This document shows, one piece after another, positions 1-24,173 of a stretch of 34,503 bases of DNA; positions within the stretch are counted from its first letter, which is position 1, and the number at the start of each line of letters is the position of its first letter. The stretch lies in the NCBI GenBank assembly GCA_964501035.1, contig CAZCRK010000012.1:1-34503 (forward strand). Direction: 5' to 3'. The notes below the pieces were generated by a model. It was not told the DNA's origin. It saw only the letters and a list, made by a program, of their open reading frames with translations, and did no database searches. The translations under genes and the position numbers were made by a program.

Positions 1-75
1 GCTCCGGTACCTGGACTCGAACCAGGGACACGTGGATTAACAGTCCACTGCTCTAACCAACTGAGCTATACCGGA
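1..75 (-). tRNA. tRNA-Asn(GTT); 3' CCA cut by window edge
   Basis: Reverse complement TCCGGTATAGCTCAGTTGGTTAGAGCAGTGGACTGTTAATCCACGTGTCCCTGGTTCGAGTCCAGGTACCGGAGC folds as a cloverleaf: acceptor TCCGGTA/TACCGGA, anticodon stem GTGGA/TCCAC with loop CTGTTAA (GTT), T-loop TTCGAGT. Confidence 0.97.
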
Positions 76-91
76 ATAAACTATGCTCTAA

Positions 92-109
92 ACAAGCCTA
101 AAAATTTAG
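92..109 (-). promoter_or_regulatory. Candidate tRNA promoter (-10 TAAATT plus downstream motif)
   Basis: Minus strand CTAAATTTTTAGGCTTGT, 16 nt upstream of tRNA-Asn; 15/18 identical to the motif at the equivalent position upstream of tRNA-Phe (24188-24205). Confidence 0.5.
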
Positions 110-158
110 GGCAAGTTTATTAAATAGATGAAATATTATTTTAAAGAATTTTATTTTT

Positions 159-2246
159 TTAATCACCACTTCTTGATGATTCATATTCAGCTATTACTTT
201 TTGAGCCTCATTATGAGGCATGTCCTCATAATGTGAAAAGTCTTGAGTAAACATTCCTCGTCCACTTGTCATTGATTTTAATGCTGTAGAATAATCATGT
301 AAGTTAGCAAGTGGTACTTCAGCATTAATTATTTGGAAATGACCATCAGAATCCATACCAGAAACTTTACCTCTACGTTGAGATACGTCACCCATAATAT
401 CACCCATCATTTCATCGGGTACTTTTACCTGAATTTTATAAATTGGTTCAAGTAATTTGGGTTTTGCTATTTTAAATGCATCTGTAAATGCATGTTTTCC
501 AGCAATTTGAAATGCCATATCATTCGAATCAACAGGATGCATTTTTCCATCGTAAAAATCAATTTTTAAATCAACTACTTTACACCCGGCTAAAATTCCA
601 TCAATGCATAAACTATCAATCCCTTTTTCAACAGAAGGCACAAACCCTCTATCAACATTTTGCCCAACCAAAGAATGTTTAAAATCAATACCTGAACCAC
701 GAGTTCCAGGTTCAATACGTAACCAAACCTCTGCAAACTGTCCTGAACCACCTGATTGTTTCTTATGACGATATTTAGCATCAGAATTTGTAGTAATCGT
801 TTCACGATATGGTACTCTCGGAGTTTCTTTATTCATTTCAACATTAAATCTATCTTTAATTCGTTCTAGTACGGTTTCTAAATGAAGTTCACCCTGACCA
901 GAAATAATAGTTTGTTTGAGTTCAGGATCAACTCGATATTGAAAAGTGGGGTCCTCTTCATGCATTGTAGATAACCCTATTGCTATTTTTTCTTCTTCAC
1001 CGCGAGCTTTTGGTAAAACTGCAATATGCATATTTGGTTTTGGGTATTTAATTTTTGGAAGAATAATTGGACTTTTAGCTGAAGCCATTGTGTCACCTGT
1101 ATGTGTGTTTTTTAACTTCAATGCCGCGCCAATATCTCCAGCAATTAATCTAGAAGCATCTTTTCTGTTTTTCCCATTCATGTAATATACTTGTCGCATT
1201 TTTTCAGATTGATTTCGGGATGTGTTTTGCACATCGTCCCCTGTGTTTACTGCACCAGAATAGACTCTGAAAAATGATAATTCACCCACATGTTCTTCAC
1301 TGATTGTTTTAAACACAACCGCAGATAGATGATCATCAACAGAAGCACCATGATGAATTTCTTCGTCAGAATCAGGTTTAGTGCCATATACTTCTTTGAA
1401 ATCTCCCGCACAAGGGGCGTATCGAGCTAAAATATCCATTACACGTTTTACACCAATATTTTTCTCTCCAGAAGTACAAAATACTGGAATAAGATTTCGT
1501 GACTGAAACGCTGCATGAAGTCCACTACGAAGTTCATCTTCAGTTAACTCACCAGCATCAAAAAACTTTTCGAGAAGTGTATCATCAGATTCTGCAATTA
1601 GTTCAATTAATTCTTCATGTAAAGAGTCAAGTTTTTCTCCCCATTCACCATCAGCTTTTGCTTCAGAATAATCACCAGAACCATCTGTCTTAAAAGTATA
1701 AATTTCTTTTCGTAAGACATCTGCAGTTTGATTAAATCCTTCACCTTCATTTACAGGAATCATAAATGGGAAAACGGTTCTTCCATACCGTTCTTGTAAT
1801 GATGCCAATACTGTATCAAATTTTGATTGATCTCTATCCGCTAAATTCACAATGATTAATCGAGGGATTGCATCTTCTTTTGCATAATCCCATATGAGTT
1901 CTGTTCCAACCTCTATACCTTCTGTTGCATTTACAACTACAGCTGCAAAGTCAGCTACACGTAAAGACGACTTTACTTCGCCATGAAAATCAAGATATCC
2001 CGGTGCATCTAATACATTAAACTTTTTTTCTAACCATTCAAAATTAAGTAATGATAACGAAATGGAATGTTGATGTTCTATTTCATTTTTTCTATAATCA
2101 GAAACTGTAGTTCCTTCACTAATGTTACCACGTTTATGGATTACACCAGCATTCAGTAACATAGATTCTGCTAAAGATGTTTTCCCAGACGCTGAGTGGC
2201 CCACTAAAGCAAGATTGATAACATTTTTTGTTGTATATTCTTTCAT
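159..2246 (-). CDS. fusA2: Elongation factor G paralogue (EF-G2 / EF-G II type)
   Basis: 695 aa with EF-G domains I-V (SGQGELHL, PRVPYRETI, KKQSGGSGQF, HPVDS, LLEPI). G-motifs are divergent: GHSASGKT, DAPGY, NLAD. Not in an rpsL-rpsG-fusA-tuf operon. SD AGAAAGGA upstream. Confidence 0.93.
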   Translation of the reverse strand: MKEYTTKNVINLALVGHSASGKTSLAESMLLNAGVIHKRGNISEGTTVSDYRKNEIEHQHSISLSLLNFEWLEKKFNVLDAPGYLDFHGEVKSSLRVADFAAVVVNATEGIEVGTELIWDYAKEDAIPRLIIVNLADRDQSKFDTVLASLQERYGRTVFPFMIPVNEGEGFNQTADVLRKEIYTFKTDGSGDYSEAKADGEWGEKLDSLHEELIELIAESDDTLLEKFFDAGELTEDELRSGLHAAFQSRNLIPVFCTSGEKNIGVKRVMDILARYAPCAGDFKEVYGTKPDSDEEIHHGASVDDHLSAVVFKTISEEHVGELSFFRVYSGAVNTGDDVQNTSRNQSEKMRQVYYMNGKNRKDASRLIAGDIGAALKLKNTHTGDTMASAKSPIILPKIKYPKPNMHIAVLPKARGEEEKIAIGLSTMHEEDPTFQYRVDPELKQTIISGQGELHLETVLERIKDRFNVEMNKETPRVPYRETITTNSDAKYRHKKQSGGSGQFAEVWLRIEPGTRGSGIDFKHSLVGQNVDRGFVPSVEKGIDSLCIDGILAGCKVVDLKIDFYDGKMHPVDSNDMAFQIAGKHAFTDAFKIAKPKLLEPIYKIQVKVPDEMMGDIMGDVSQRRGKVSGMDSDGHFQIINAEVPLANLHDYSTALKSMTSGRGMFTQDFSHYEDMPHNEAQKVIAEYESSRSGD

Positions 2247-2260
2247 TATATATCCTTTCT

Positions 2261-2297
2261 AAAATATAAAATCCGACATAATACTGCCGGATTTTAT
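2261..2297 (-). terminator. Intrinsic terminator-like hairpin in the fusA2 5' leader
   Basis: Minus strand AUAAAAUCCGGCA-GUAUUA-UGUCGGAUUUUAU followed by AUUUU: 13-bp stem with one G-U pair and a U-rich tail, ending directly before the fusA2 SD. Confidence 0.75.
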
Positions 2298-2305
2298 TCC
2301 AAATT

Positions 2306-2383
2306 TCACAATGTAGTACCCAATTCCCTGGAAGGAATTGGGCTGTAATATCTGCCCAATTCTGTAATAACAATTTTTTTCAT
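2306..2383 (-). CDS. Putative 25-aa leader peptide (uORF) of fusA2: MKKIVITELGRYYSPIPSRELGTTL
   Basis: ATG at 2383-2381, TGA at 2308-2306, purine-rich AGGGAA upstream. Overlaps mutually exclusive hairpin segments and ends 8 nt before the terminator arm. Not in the supplied ORF track (below its length cutoff). Confidence 0.55.
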   Translation of the reverse strand: MKKIVITELGRYYSPIPSRELGTTL

Positions 2384-2446
2384 CTGCACAATTCCCTATT
2401 CAAAAGGGGTTGTAAAGTAAGTGTAAAACTGGCAACTAAACAAGAC

Positions 2447-2719
2447 CTAATTGTCCTTAAACAATGTGGTTTCTTTTTCTTTCTCAATCATTTCTCTTAA
2501 TACAGGTTTAACGTATATCGAGTCTAGTTTTAAATTGGAAAATGCCTCCACCAAACATTTGACTCTATGCTCCATCGGTTTATTTTTATTGACTACAATA
2601 ACAGACTCATTTTCTAAAATACAATACCCACCTTTAAAATTACCTTTACCTTGAACAATTCGAATGCTCATTTCTTCTGCTAACTTTTCAAACTCTGAAA
2701 ATAAATGGGCAGGTTTCAC
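2447..2719 (-). CDS. Small conserved hypothetical protein (FCB-type)
   Basis: 90 aa, overlaps the manC stop by 4 nt (GTGA). The motif GKGNFKGGYCIL...IVVNK resembles a small protein family I recall from Bacteroidota. Confidence 0.8.
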   Translation of the reverse strand: MKPAHLFSEFEKLAEEMSIRIVQGKGNFKGGYCILENESVIVVNKNKPMEHRVKCLVEAFSNLKLDSIYVKPVLREMIEKEKETTLFKDN

Positions 2720-3780
2720 AGATATTCATCTTTATTCATAGACTCAAGCATTTTAACAACATCCTTAACACCTTCAGACATTGATAAAGGAACTACTAAT
2801 GTTGCATCATCTAGATTAATGACTGCCATGTTTTCAACTCCAACTACTGCAGTGAGACGATAAGGACTAATTACTAAGTTATTAGACGAAGAAATTGAAA
2901 GTACATCACCATCAATTACATTCTTTTTTCCAGAACTTAAAATATCAAAAAGTGCTTTCCATGAACCCAAATCATTCCATTCAAAATTGGCCTTGATGGT
3001 ATGCACATTTTTGGCTTTTTCAAGAATTCCATAATCAATACTTTCTGGTTGTATCAACTCCCATTCTCTGTCAAGCACAATATCGTATTTATCGGTTCCT
3101 AATGCATCATAAATTGCATCCAAGGAATCATGTAATTCACACATGAAGGTTTTCATTTCAAGCAAAATTAATTTGGCTTGCCAAATGAACATGCCAGAAT
3201 TCCAAAGAAACTCACCACTTTTAATAAATTTTTCAGCTGTCTCTAAATGAGGTTTTTCAGCAAATGTTTTTACCTTAAACACATTTTCAGAAATTCCATT
3301 TTTGGTTCCATCAAATTGAATGTATCCATATCCCGTCGAAGGGAACGAAGGTTGCACACCCAATGTCATAAGAACAGCATTGTTTTTTGCCGTTTCTTCC
3401 GCTTCCTTTAATGCAGAAAAATATTCACTCTCACCTTGAATTAAATGATCAGCTGGATACACCCCCATAACAGCATTTTGATCACGATGGTACACATGCA
3501 ATGCTGCCAATCCTATTGCAGGTGCTGTATTTTTACCGCTTGGTTCAACAATATAATTTTGTTTAGGAATTTCTTTGATTTCAGTTTGTATCAGTTTGCA
3601 TAATTGGTTAGATGCAACTATTAAAATTTGCTCTGGATTGGATATTTTCATTAATCGTTTAACTGTTAATCCAATCATGGTATCTTCACCCAAAATGTTA
3701 AGCAATTGCTTGGGTTTGTTTTTTCTACTTTTTGGCCAAAAGCGTGAACCACTTCCTCCAGCTAAAATTACATGGTACAT
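2716..3780 (-). CDS. manC: Mannose-1-phosphate guanylyltransferase
   Basis: ILAGGSGSRFWPKSR..PKQLL, EPSGKNTAPAI, PADH, FAEKP, WNSGMF, SIDYGILEK, WNDLGSW. No C-terminal PMI cupin. Confidence 0.95.
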   Translation of the reverse strand: MYHVILAGGSGSRFWPKSRKNKPKQLLNILGEDTMIGLTVKRLMKISNPEQILIVASNQLCKLIQTEIKEIPKQNYIVEPSGKNTAPAIGLAALHVYHRDQNAVMGVYPADHLIQGESEYFSALKEAEETAKNNAVLMTLGVQPSFPSTGYGYIQFDGTKNGISENVFKVKTFAEKPHLETAEKFIKSGEFLWNSGMFIWQAKLILLEMKTFMCELHDSLDAIYDALGTDKYDIVLDREWELIQPESIDYGILEKAKNVHTIKANFEWNDLGSWKALFDILSSGKKNVIDGDVLSISSSNNLVISPYRLTAVVGVENMAVINLDDATLVVPLSMSEGVKDVVKMLESMNKDEYL

Positions 3781-5325
3781 TTATTTTTCCTCAATATTAT
3801 TTAAATATTTTATATCAATTCCTTCAATATCCCAACGAGCTCTTACTTCCACTTTATCCGGATAAAAAACAAATTTTGAAGCTCTTTTATAGGGTTCTAA
3901 AGTTCCTGGGAAATAAGCATTATGGTGTAATTCATTTAGCTTTTCATATGCCCATAGGGTATAGAACCCAGATGGTAAATTTTCTAATCTGAATGTTCCA
4001 TTTTTTACAGTTGAGAAATAAGAAACTTTGGTTAAATCGTTAATTGCTTCAATGCCAATTTTAACCTGAGTATCAAAATCAACTGAACCTAGAATGTTCC
4101 CACCAATGCTTGATTCAACTGAAGAAATATTGTGAGATATAGGAATGTTTATGGTTGAATCTGGAAAGAAATTTGAATAATAATCAGAAAATGTGTTTGG
4201 TAAAATTTCTACACTTGTAATCGAATCTGGAAGATGACTTATGAATACTTGTAGGGGAGTATTTTCCATTAATGAAAATTGATATGCATTTGAATCAACA
4301 AAACCAAAAACGTGTTGATTTTCAATTATTATAGGTTCATTAAATTCTAAAACGAATTCACTACTGTTTGTATAAGAAGAGGAAATCACTGGTGAAAGGG
4401 TGTCAACAATTTCAGGCATTATAAATTGAAATGGTTTAGTTGTGTATGTTTCAACACTATTTTCTAGAGTCTTTGTAATTGCAACGGAATCCCCAACCAT
4501 ATAGGGGGTGCTATTATGTGATACTAAAATAGTTTGGAGTTGTGTGCCATCATTTAACTCTGCAATTCCAAAACTTTGATTTATCAATTCTATAGATTGA
4601 ATTTGTTTATGTTCGATTGGATAATGAAGAAACATTTTGATAGGAGGTAGTTCTTGGTTCTCAATCACTTGAATACTATCCATCATCATCATTGAATACC
4701 GAAATTGTCTTATATTTTCAAGTGGATTATCAAGATTACCTTCTACCCCAAGAATAAAATAATTACCCGGAGTTAAAAAGTCAAATGAGAAATTTCCAAA
4801 TTTTGAGCTTTCTGTTTTACGCACCAATTGGATTGAATCTTGAATGGGATATTGAAACAACCCCACTAGGGACACCTTATTAGAATCGATATTTACAATT
4901 GATCCTGAAATTGAGCCAGTAGGAATAGTTTGTCCCGTTGAAAATATAAATTGAGATGGTGATTGCATTGTATTGCCTTGGTAATCTCTAATATTTCTAG
5001 AAATATCAATTCTGATTACAGATTGATTTTCCCATTCTTCTTCAGGGATAATAATAATTTTTTTACTTCTAATTTTCACACGATAGGTTTGGTTCTCTAT
5101 CATAACAGAAGACGGAATAGAAACTGGATCAACCATTTCATTAAAATAAATAGTAATTGGAGTATCTTTTTCTATGTGGAGTGATTTATTTTCAGGTTCA
5201 ATTTTAGTAATTATAGGTCCTTCTTTGTCTTCGGGGCCACCTGATGCAGTTCCTTGAGCTGCACACGAAAAGAAGAAAAGAACACATAATATTAGTAAGA
5301 AGTTGGATTTAATATGCGAAATCAT
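3781..5325 (-). CDS. Lipoprotein with Big_5/SbsA-type Ig-like domains
   Basis: Lipobox FFSC-A then ASGGPEDKEGP and I.I.FNE, typical of the conserved FCB Ig-like lipoprotein; second DTLSP...LEFNEPI repeat; C-terminal VRARWD. Confidence 0.8.
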   Translation of the reverse strand: MISHIKSNFLLILCVLFFFSCAAQGTASGGPEDKEGPIITKIEPENKSLHIEKDTPITIYFNEMVDPVSIPSSVMIENQTYRVKIRSKKIIIIPEEEWENQSVIRIDISRNIRDYQGNTMQSPSQFIFSTGQTIPTGSISGSIVNIDSNKVSLVGLFQYPIQDSIQLVRKTESSKFGNFSFDFLTPGNYFILGVEGNLDNPLENIRQFRYSMMMMDSIQVIENQELPPIKMFLHYPIEHKQIQSIELINQSFGIAELNDGTQLQTILVSHNSTPYMVGDSVAITKTLENSVETYTTKPFQFIMPEIVDTLSPVISSSYTNSSEFVLEFNEPIIIENQHVFGFVDSNAYQFSLMENTPLQVFISHLPDSITSVEILPNTFSDYYSNFFPDSTINIPISHNISSVESSIGGNILGSVDFDTQVKIGIEAINDLTKVSYFSTVKNGTFRLENLPSGFYTLWAYEKLNELHHNAYFPGTLEPYKRASKFVFYPDKVEVRARWDIEGIDIKYLNNIEEK

Positions 5326-5406
5326 ATCACAAAATTTCGGAATATTTGCAGGGTTTCACAAGGATTTGTTTTTTTGAATTTATTTCAAATTCATAGCATT
5401 ATTTCT

Positions 5407-5434
5407 TTGCAAATTGATTATTTCACACTAAATT
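5407..5434 (+). promoter_or_regulatory. Candidate sigma70 promoter giving a leaderless yqgE mRNA
   Basis: TTGCAA(5407-5412)-16 nt-TAAATT(5429-5434)-5 nt-ATG(5440); no SD before the start codon. Confidence 0.45.
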
Positions 5435-5439
5435 GAAAC

Positions 5440-5991
5440 ATGGGACAAAGCTTTAAAAATCACTTCCTTATATCTATGCCGCATTTGTTGGATCCTGTTT
5501 TCAAACATACAATTTTACTCTTATGTAACCATGATGCAGATGGCGCAATGGGAGTTATAATTAATAAACCGATTCCATCTGCAAATGTGGAAGAAATTCT
5601 ACAAGAAACTGGGTTGGTTAATATAAATCCACATCCAGAAGTTTATTTTGGTGGACCGGTAAGTGTAAGTACGGGTATGATTTTACACGATTCAAATTAT
5701 AATTCTGAAAACTCACTTCATATTTCAAGCCAAATCAATATTACTTCAAACGAACAGGTAATTGAAGATATTAAATCTGGGAATGGCCCTCAAAAATTTA
5801 GGTTTGCACTTGGTTATGCTGGTTGGGGGGCAGGGCAACTTGAACGGGAAATTGAAAATGGTGATTGGTTAATGATGCCAGCAGATTTTGATTTTATTTT
5901 TAATACACCTGATAGAATTAAATGGTCGTCATCTGCTCAACAATTTGGAATCAATATCTCAGATTTTTCTGGCCCAACTGGCTTGGCCTAA
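5440..5991 (+). CDS. yqgE: YqgE/AlgH family protein (DUF179)
   Basis: FLISMP..DPVF, HDADGAMGVIINKP, YFGGPV, LGYAGWGAGQLEREI..GDW. Confidence 0.95.
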   Translation: MGQSFKNHFLISMPHLLDPVFKHTILLLCNHDADGAMGVIINKPIPSANVEEILQETGLVNINPHPEVYFGGPVSVSTGMILHDSNYNSENSLHISSQINITSNEQVIEDIKSGNGPQKFRFALGYAGWGAGQLEREIENGDWLMMPADFDFIFNTPDRIKWSSSAQQFGINISDFSGPTGLA

Positions 5992-6672
5992 TCATAATAA
6001 TCCTGAATCTGCAAAACTTGTAACTTCATCTCCAGCAATGATAAAATGATCGTGTACAGTAACGTCAATGTTTGCACATGCTTGTTGTAATTTTTTTGTG
6101 ATTTTAATATCGTCCTGTGATGGATTTGGATTTCCGGATGGGTGATTGTGAACAAAAATTACGGCAGCGGAATCTTTTTCTATGATGAGTTTTATGACTT
6201 CTCTTGGGTAAACTGCAGAGGTTGTTAATGTTCCTTCAAATAAGGTTTCCATACTTTGAATTTGGTTTCGTCCATTTAGTAAAATGATTTTGAATACTTC
6301 TCTATTGCATCCTGAAAGTTCATGTTTTAAATATCGTAACACATCTGGTGAGGATGAAATAAAATCTGCATCAATTACCTTTTCTTTAAGATACCTATTT
6401 GCAGTGGATTGAATAAGTTTGAGTCCAAAAATGTTTGACTGACCGATTCCATCTATATCTAATAACTGTTTTGGAGAAGCTTCCAAAACCCCACGCAAAT
6501 TTTTAAACTTTTTGAGTAATCGTTTTGCAGTAGGTTTTTGATCTCGTCGATGGTCTGCTAATTTTAGAAGTAATTCAATCACTTCATAATCAAGAAAACC
6601 ATCTAATCCATTATGGAGAAATCGTTGTCGCAGTCGAGCGTAATGGCCAATCTTTGTATTTTGTTTTTGCAT
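5992..6672 (-). CDS. radC: RadC family JAB-domain protein (full length, with HhH region)
   Basis: GHYARLRQRF, IDGIG HhH, VYPREV, HNHPSGNPNPSQDD, VHDHFII. Confidence 0.95.
   Translation of the reverse strand: MQKQNTKIGHYARLRQRFLHNGLDGFLDYEVIELLLKLADHRRDQKPTAKRLLKKFKNLRGVLEASPKQLLDIDGIGQSNIFGLKLIQSTANRYLKEKVIDADFISSSPDVLRYLKHELSGCNREVFKIILLNGRNQIQSMETLFEGTLTTSAVYPREVIKLIIEKDSAAVIFVHNHPSGNPNPSQDDIKITKKLQQACANIDVTVHDHFIIAGDEVTSFADSGLL

Positions 6673-24100: not shown

Positions 24101-24173
<73 letters not shown>

Follow-up and report, generated by a model that had tools for sequence, protein, structure and literature searches.

What decides when a cell makes an alternative EF-G? Such paralogs are widespread, and little is known about when they are made. 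The question is raised here by a stretch of 34,503 nucleotides (nt), contig CAZCRK010000012.1 of assembly GCA_964501035.1 (hereafter the window), in which the gene for an EF-G paralog of 695 amino acids (aa), of the EFG-II (EF-G2) kind (159-2246, minus strand), is preceded by a 200-nt gap. We identify in this gap a leader made of a short upstream open reading frame (uORF), a hairpin inside it and a terminator-like second hairpin. The leader is a cis element supported by covariation and dedicated to the EF-G2 gene. On balance, we favor the reading that the gap is a cis-acting, ribosome-dependent transcription attenuator of a type other than that of the trp operon. Its design, with a uORF that runs through a hairpin, a putative terminator, no evident antiterminator and no regulatory codon run, is unlike that of the textbook amino-acid attenuators. 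If ribosome progress does control read-through into the gene, the leader would amount to a natural sensor that couples a translocase gene to the cell's capacity for elongation or translocation, a circuit that has been proposed for resistance factors and not for a housekeeping-type EF-G paralog.

A conserved leader in front of the EF-G2 gene

All parts of the leader lie on the minus strand. A sequence-only reading of the window had placed a uORF with its own Shine-Dalgarno (SD) site, a terminator hairpin and the SD site of the EF-G gene in the gap, and rereading the sequence confirms each of these elements at its position. The uORF (MKKIVITELGRYYSPIPSRELGTTL; 2306-2383) has its ATG at 2383 and 25 codons followed by TGA (2308-2306); it appears in the list of open reading frames (ORFs) and recurs in related leaders. 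A weak SD-like AGGGAA (2392-2397; predicted pairing with the anti-SD, -5.3 kcal/mol) stands before it. Inside the uORF lies hairpin A, which was absent from the elements listed in that earlier reading (2318-2343; arms GCCCAAUUCC and GGAAUUGGGU; 10-11 base pairs (bp); predicted fold, -16.0 kcal/mol; supported by covariation). It is preceded at a distance of 13 nt by a GGGCAGA box (2351-2357), a consensus in alignments A2 and A3 that spans codons Gly10-Arg11. An A/U-rich spacer that holds the uORF stop codon (2298-2317) leads to the terminator-like hairpin B and its U tract (2261-2297; predicted fold, -15.7 kcal/mol; likewise supported by covariation). The stem of hairpin B (2297-2266) comprises 13 bp with one G-U pair, a GC core of UCCGGCA/UGUCGGA and a 6-nt loop, and its tail AUUUU reaches to 2261. 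From the uORF stop it is 8 nt to the stem (2305-2298) and 14 nt to the start of the GC core. The SD site of the EF-G paralog, AGAAAGGA, follows at 2253-2260. As a whole, the 221-nt leader folds at -55.1 kcal/mol against a shuffle mean of -41.0 (z = -3.4), beating all 200 dinucleotide shuffles. Rfam 15 returned only two tRNAs in the window at gathering thresholds, and its best match to the leader, with E-values of up to 10 allowed, scored 20.6 bits against a threshold of 110.

The uORF-plus-terminator leader that the sequence-only reading had proposed is real, conserved and specific to this EF-G paralog. We first inspected the stretches upstream of 33 orthologs, 23 of them from relatives and another 10 from the order; in 19 of the 33, the uORF and hairpins A and B recur with unchanged spacing to the start codon. 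A covariance model built from the leaders (R1) was then run on 74 genomes of this order of uncultured bacteria, 44 of them with an ortholog of the window gene. It gave one strong match each (41.7-85.4 bits) in 22 of the 74, representing 10 genera, and all of these matches lie directly upstream of the ortholog. The carriers span four of the five families: all nine genomes of f3; genera g1 and g3 and most of g7 in f1; g14 in f2; and two of the three genomes of f4. The GC-rich family f5 gave no R1 element in any of its 16 genomes. Two g7 genomes (G007 and G018) carry a degenerate form (30-34 bits) in which hairpin A is missing and the uORF and terminator are kept. A scan of metagenomes, in which 80 loci were kept out of more than 443 related stretches, added 19 loci that carry the element, ending 13-23 nt before the gene start. 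Across 77 genomes outside the order we found no R1 match at the gene and three weak matches (37-41.5 bits), all on contigs other than that of the ortholog, and a rescan of 36 element-less loci with filters off gave nothing above 20 bits. Matches of about 30 bits elsewhere are probably plain terminators. The single strong copy per genome rules out a repeat or mobile element. At one locus (L010, G002:C3) we noted a different leader, with a terminator-like hairpin only and a 15-codon uORF that starts in the 5' arm of this hairpin and overlaps the main start (ATGA); the gene match there contains one in-frame TAA.

Both hairpins covary. The RNAalifold consensus of 18 aligned leaders consists of exactly hairpins A and B, with compensatory double changes at 12 of 18 pairs, as illustrated by GCCCAAUUCC/GGAAUUGGGU against GCCUGGUCUC/GAGACCGGGC. 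An independent MAFFT alignment has 92.8% of cells paired, as compared with 28-54% when the partner is slid, and both-side changes at 12 of 20 pairs; its covariation score of 0.489 exceeds the 0.264 of shuffles, none of 500 of which reaches the observed value. When 32 distinct sequences are pooled, in an alignment that was fitted to the covariance model and hence leans towards structure, 93.6% of cells are paired, 14 of 20 pairs show both-side changes and the score is 0.431 against 0.243, again reached by none of 500 shuffles. Hairpin A is the best conserved part of the leader, with both-side changes at 8 of 10 pairs and 92.8-94.4% of cells paired. For hairpin B, both-side changes affect 4-6 of 10 pairs, the stem measures 8-13 bp across leaders and GGAUUUU varies hardly or not at all. 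In the other leaders, hairpin A and the terminator stem are mostly 13-22 nt apart.

Some details of these alignments deserve mention in their own right. Columns 84 and 100 of alignment A6, in the GC core of the terminator, form a G-U wobble in 18 of the 32 distinct sequences and stronger pairs in the others. The GGGCAGA box stands 13 nt before hairpin A in most lineages; genus g3 has GCGAAA (Ala-Lys), and in g7 a G-[RKT] pair is found 12 nt further upstream. Pairing of the GGGC box with the 5' arm of hairpin A was considered and rejected, as only 57.6% of cells pair, below the shuffle mean.

The upstream open reading frame

Alignment of the regions upstream of the orthologs bears out the uORF that the sequence-only reading had picked out: alongside the covariation of both hairpins, the frame is kept throughout and its length is kept within lineages. 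An ATG-started uORF that covers hairpin A is present in 22/22 genome leaders and 15/15 metagenome leaders (37/37 together). The distance from its ATG to hairpin A is 31-52 nt, 40 nt being the commonest value, and the frame is 21 to 41 codons long in total, with close relatives in agreement (25/25, 30/30, 41/41, 27/27, 21/21 and 22/22). Shuffling the upstream 60 nt produces such a frame by chance with a probability of 0.09-0.44 per leader; the product over 10 genera is 9e-7, a figure that treats the genera as independent and so overstates the significance.

The encoded peptide, by contrast with its frame, drifts. Over ten leader pairs, not all of them independent, the uORF shows 22 synonymous and 72 non-synonymous codon changes, whereas the first ~20 codons of the main ORF show 59 synonymous and 12 non-synonymous changes in the same pairs. 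Loci L040 and L122 have lost one nucleotide of the hairpin loop, which puts the C-terminal part of the uORF in another frame and leaves the ORF open. The leader peptides differ widely, and we found in them neither a regulatory codon run nor a conserved arrest motif; the only recurrent features are G-[RK] and P-[IV]-S, both of which overlap conserved RNA positions. Judged on these comparisons, the pattern is that of a cis-regulatory uORF, in which conservation extends to the open frame, and with it presumably to translation, but not to the peptide. That the frame stays open speaks for translation of the uORF, and that it does so while the peptide drifts speaks against a functional small protein as well as against a sequence-specific arrest peptide. 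The stalling at YYSPIP that the sequence-only reading had put forward is therefore not upheld, as other leaders have RVIRPIL, NFSPIS, QIHPIS or YLSLVS in place of this string.

How the uORF ends differs between leaders. Its stop codon falls 4-16 nt before the terminator stem in 14/22, and in the other 8/22 the frame runs into the stem (3 leaders) or right through it (5 leaders). The main ORF is preceded by an SD site of -4.6 kcal/mol or better in 22/22.

Putative promoter, read-through and origin of the leader

The window has a -35-like hexamer, TTGTTT (2438-2443, minus strand), identified by sequence reading and comparison, and, 18 nt after it, a predicted -10-like hexamer, TACTTT (2414-2419). 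A corresponding TTGNNN-N17/18-TAnnnT site is found 20-38 nt upstream of the uORF ATG in 21/22 leaders, and a similar, sigma-70-like site (mostly TTGATT-N17/18-TACACT or TACAAT) precedes the ortholog at 19/20 loci of other orders. Between this site and the uORF lies a C-rich box followed by a U run (ACCCCUUUUG; 2401-2410), which recurs in leaders and where we would expect the transcript to start. In most leaders a CCC(C) run comes right after the -10-like hexamer, and in other orders the C-rich segment is followed by GUUUUU, in a region that is otherwise AT-rich. The combination resembles a GC-rich discriminator or a start-site element.

Downstream, the stem of hairpin B ends 13-33 nt before the main ATG in 22/22 leaders. 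This distance leaves no room for a promoter, so the EF-G2 gene must be reached by read-through; the sequence-only reading had reasoned in the same way, and the conserved promoter-like site upstream of the uORF agrees with it.

Comparison with other orders suggests how the leader arose. The upstream gene in the window and in most of the class encodes a 90-aa ORF. In other orders this gene and the promoter also precede the ortholog, with a 5' untranslated region (UTR) of 70-130 nt that lacks the uORF-hairpin-terminator module. Since promoter and gene are common to orders without the module, the module looks like an insertion into an older 5' UTR. Its presence in four of five families of one order, and its absence elsewhere though promoter and gene are the same, make it a clean case of a regulatory module apparently inserted into an existing 5' UTR. 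At two loci from two families (L014 and L016) the neighboring gene is divergent and the leader module is intact. The module stays with the EF-G2 gene despite the divergent neighbor, and the leader thus belongs to that gene and not to the upstream one. These two loci also rule out hairpin B as the terminator of an upstream operon.

A proposed ribosome-dependent attenuator and its rivals

How might such a leader work? In folding models we see no stable antiterminator, nor the mutually exclusive structures of the trp/his class, which would make termination the default and require that its relief be physical or kinetic. We propose the following scheme. Transcription would start at the putative promoter, ~25-30 nt upstream of the uORF, and a ribosome would have to translate the uORF through the stable hairpin A. 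RNA polymerase would then meet the putative intrinsic terminator B, 15-20 nt before the SD site of the EF-G2 gene, and would terminate there by default. Termination would be relieved when, as the polymerase transcribes hairpin B, a ribosome already covers the 5' side of this hairpin or stands directly at it, a coupling like that of pyrBI. Hairpin A could act as a pause site or roadblock that sets the distance between ribosome and polymerase, and EF-G2 output would then report the speed and frequency of ribosome passage through the leader. A pyrBI-like scheme fits best because the uORF stops near the terminator or runs into or through it, and because uORF and terminator are kept in the two g7 genomes without hairpin A.

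Several observations weigh against this reading. The segment that begins with the 3' arm of A and ends with the 5' arm of B shows no excess stability over shuffles in folding (z from -2.1 to +1.5; +1.5 in the window), and masking the 5' arm of A, as a ribosome would, leaves the terminator core at a probability of 0.86-1.00 in 22/22 leaders. Only 9/22 leaders have an SD-like site of -3.4 kcal/mol or better before the uORF and 13/22 are without one, which counts against its translation. A ribosome at the uORF stop codon in the window, given the usual size of its footprint, would reach only the A-U base of the hairpin B stem. Lineages differ in where the uORF ends with respect to the terminator, which makes for a poor fit to any single precise geometry. 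Finally, a simple terminator scanner did not list hairpin B (2297-2261), likely because the maximal stem swallows part of the U tract. The attenuator claim of the sequence-only reading thus holds up in its architecture, its conservation and the need for read-through, and finds no backing in a stable antiterminator or a stalling motif; the signals suggested there (translocation status, GTP shortage or an antibiotic) are conjecture, as is any direction of the response.

The ribosome-dependent reading can be sharpened into a possible, though rather unlikely, form in which the leader is a translocation meter. Hairpin A would slow the first ribosome to a degree that depends on translocase activity, and the pace of this ribosome against the polymerase would decide the fate of the terminator and so set the level of EF-G2. 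EF-G2 would possibly close an autoregulatory loop by altering the speed of passage through hairpin A. The conserved Gly-Arg/Lys codons stand 13 nt before hairpin A, which we take to be one half-footprint, so that they would presumably occupy the P and A sites when the hairpin meets the mRNA entry site. As a translocation sensor, this placement is suggestive, no more.

A trp-like attenuator with a kinetic antiterminator is an unlikely alternative in which a ribosome on the 5' arm of A would free UUGGG in the 3' arm to pair with UCCGG in the 5' arm of B, giving read-through, a ribosome at the stop codon would cover that 3' arm and so give termination, and slow translocation would switch EF-G2 on. 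This 5-bp helix, mostly of G-U pairs, is possible in 95.6% of cells over the 32 distinct sequences, against 9-62% with the partner slid. It shows no covariation, however, and shuffles reach 94.5%, 47 of 500 attaining the observed value; they pair almost as well because the columns of the alternative helix are all but invariant. In 8/22 leaders, no upstream segment pairs better with the terminator 5' arm than the 3' arm of A does, but in the leader studied here this arm ranks only 8th of 82 windows. The CC and GG cores keep the same orientation in both hairpins throughout, and in G030 (L015 / L062 / L127) the terminator is a partial copy of hairpin A, the arms sharing AUGGAUGAAAUUGGGC, so that cross-pairing extends over 7 bp. 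Set against this, the helix is weak (-3 to -12 kcal/mol) and no better than in shuffles, and the terminator wins at equilibrium in 22/22 leaders. The uORF geometry also fits poorly: among the 8/22 leaders whose frame enters or crosses the terminator, the five that are read right through would have an unstalled ribosome block the terminator too.

Also unlikely is a factor-dependent leader, in which hairpin A, the GGCAGR box or both would be bound by a small ligand or by a protein, be it a ribosomal protein, EF-G2 itself or some other RNA binder; this binding would control termination or translation of the uORF, and the ribosome would not be the sensor. The GCC/GGC base of hairpin A and the GGCAGR box are indeed conserved in sequence beyond what a plain stem needs, and protein-mediated leaders have been predicted for rpsL/fusA operons (PMC2965389). 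Against this, hairpin A shows free variation in its loop and upper stem and has no conserved bulge or internal loop, which makes a ligand pocket unlikely. A pure RNA-protein switch would not require the uORF that is kept in all 37 leaders, and the leader has no Rfam match.

We consider it distinctly unlikely that hairpin B is a constitutive leaky terminator or insulator, which would block read-through from upstream and fix a low level of EF-G2, with the uORF and hairpin A acting only on mRNA stability or leader translation. In keeping with such a role, no terminator separates the 90-aa gene from the leader in the window, and no alternative structure was found. A search of sequencing runs listed no RNA run with raw reads over this region. 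Three runs of one study, which match 4-7% of the sequence words and are flagged as probably DNA, were compared with positions 1-6000, and their contig pieces cover 2162-2704; one of them (2184-2355), from a run labelled metatranscriptomic, bridges the terminator, as a leaky terminator would allow, and another (2244-2447) spans the gap. They carry no ends, strand or level, and we draw nothing from them. The module, however, accompanies the EF-G2 gene even where the neighbor on its upstream side is divergent, other orders keep promoter and gene without any terminator, and a fixed attenuator needs no uORF of conserved start position and length.

It is very improbable that the uORF is the gene of a functional small protein, equipped with its own terminator, and that read-through into EF-G2 is incidental: an ATG ORF of 21-41 codons with a terminator of its own is present in all leaders, but its codon changes are mostly non-synonymous (72 against 22), its C-terminal length varies from 21 to 41 residues in total, L040 and L122 have a C-terminal frameshift, and its conserved residues coincide with paired nucleotides of hairpin A.

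Relation to known leaders

A ribosome-dependent attenuator of the kind we favor would have its closest counterpart in the pyrBI leader of Escherichia coli. There, too, an intrinsic terminator, a putative one in our case, lies between a short leader ORF and the immediately adjoining structural gene, and, with no stable antiterminator, relief would depend on a ribosome close behind RNA polymerase. The pyrBI leader ORF runs through the terminator, and a coupled ribosome blocks the hairpin. Here, the uORF runs through the terminator in only 5/22 leaders and into its stem in 3 more, and in the window it stops 8 nt before the stem. The present leader further differs in having no evident UTP-sensing logic, in the conserved hairpin inside the uORF and in its target, a translation factor. 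With the trp, his and thr leaders it has in common a uORF, a putative terminator and presumed default termination, and a chain of segments A5', A3', B5' and B3' is formally possible. In contrast to those leaders, it has no regulatory codon run, its peptide is not conserved, and its 5-bp candidate antiterminator lacks statistical and thermodynamic support.

Leaders of ribosome-protection genes offer a second comparison. The tet(M) gene of Tn916 has a leader ORF (orf12) and a rho-independent terminator before a gene for an EF-G-family GTPase, as here, and its regulation has been proposed to depend on the speed of leader translation (10.1101/2021.03.24.436905). That source describes the mechanism as poorly established or debated, with no toeprint at the leader ribosome-binding site. 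The tet(M) gene is, however, a mobile resistance gene induced by tetracycline, and its leader has no similarity in sequence or structure to the present one. For genes of the antibiotic-resistance ABC-F translation factors, including msrD and vmlR, two further sources describe transcription or translation that is gated by ribosome behavior on a uORF followed by a terminator (10.1101/2021.11.29.470318, 10.1101/2022.12.05.519065). Leaders of this kind depend on the arrest of ribosomes at defined peptide motifs in the presence of a drug; the peptide of the present leader, by contrast, drifts, and the leader has no known link to an antibiotic.

Two precedents concern EF-G genes themselves. Predicted transcription attenuators lie upstream of the EF-G gene in rpsL/fusA leaders (PMC2965389); they concern canonical fusA in the str operon, presumably act through the protein S7, and have antiterminators and no uORF, unlike the present leader. 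The fusA2 gene of Bacteroides thetaiotaomicron encodes the same broad kind of protein, an alternative EF-G, and its promoter is activated by BT4338 upon carbon limitation (PMC6989115). In this gene, the only alternative EF-G gene to have been studied well, the known control is thus at the promoter, unlike in the leader described here, and that paper nowhere mentions a leader, a terminator, a UTR or a word beginning with attenuat-. Our literature search, which covered few subscription journals and so does not prove absence from print, gave no paper among those listed (in one case 25 of 159 hits) that links EF-G2 or fusA2 to a leader peptide, uORF or attenuator.

Gene identity and neighboring genes

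The assignment of the downstream gene rests on Pfam, NCBIfam and motif reading. Its 695-aa product has the complete EF-G domain set in Pfam (GTP_EFTU, EF-G_D2, EFG_III, EFG_IV and EFG_C), and its best NCBIfam model is NF009381, 'elongation factor G', at 873 bits (cut-off 583). The model for the Bacteroides EF-G2 (EFG2_Bacteroid, NF058620) gives 717 bits, under its curated cut-off of 1000. At the position of the canonical EKERGITIT the protein reads EIEHQHSIS and has no RGITI motif, a loss that PMC3150367 gives as a hallmark of the EFG-II subfamily; the EF-G2 identity proposed in the sequence-only reading agrees with this. The window gene itself lies outside the str operon, and a genome of the same genus (G001) has a canonical fusA within that operon, in the order rpoC-rpsL-rpsG-fusA-tuf. 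With TIGR00484, no canonical fusA turned up in the assembly of the window itself, which is 95.7% complete; the window gene scored best, with 622 bits, and stayed under the cut-off. A gap in the assembly is the probable cause. Within the class, 194/307 genomes have an ortholog of the window gene. Taken together, the missing RGITI, the canonical fusA in the str operon of the related genome and the spread of orthologs make EF-G2 a fair label for the gene, as far as sequence can tell.

Upstream, the minus strand carries a Big_5 protein gene (5325-3781), a nucleotidyl transferase gene (3780-2716), the 90-aa ORF (2719-2447), the 200-nt gap and the EF-G2 ORF (2246-159). The GTG start of the 90-aa ORF overlaps the TGA of the nucleotidyl transferase gene. 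Its product matches no Pfam or NCBIfam family, and none of its 14 homologs is informatively named. Similar C-terminal ends (..Y[LIV]xPALRxxI..) precede the ortholog at most loci of other orders as well, and the 90-aa ORF may be a conserved partner of EF-G2.

On the other side, ~85 nt separate the EF-G2 stop from a tRNA gene further downstream (2-75, minus strand); another tRNA is found at 24101-24173. The first tRNA is the part of the window most covered by the contigs of the three runs mentioned above, with mismatches, which suggest that these contigs probably come from other organisms.

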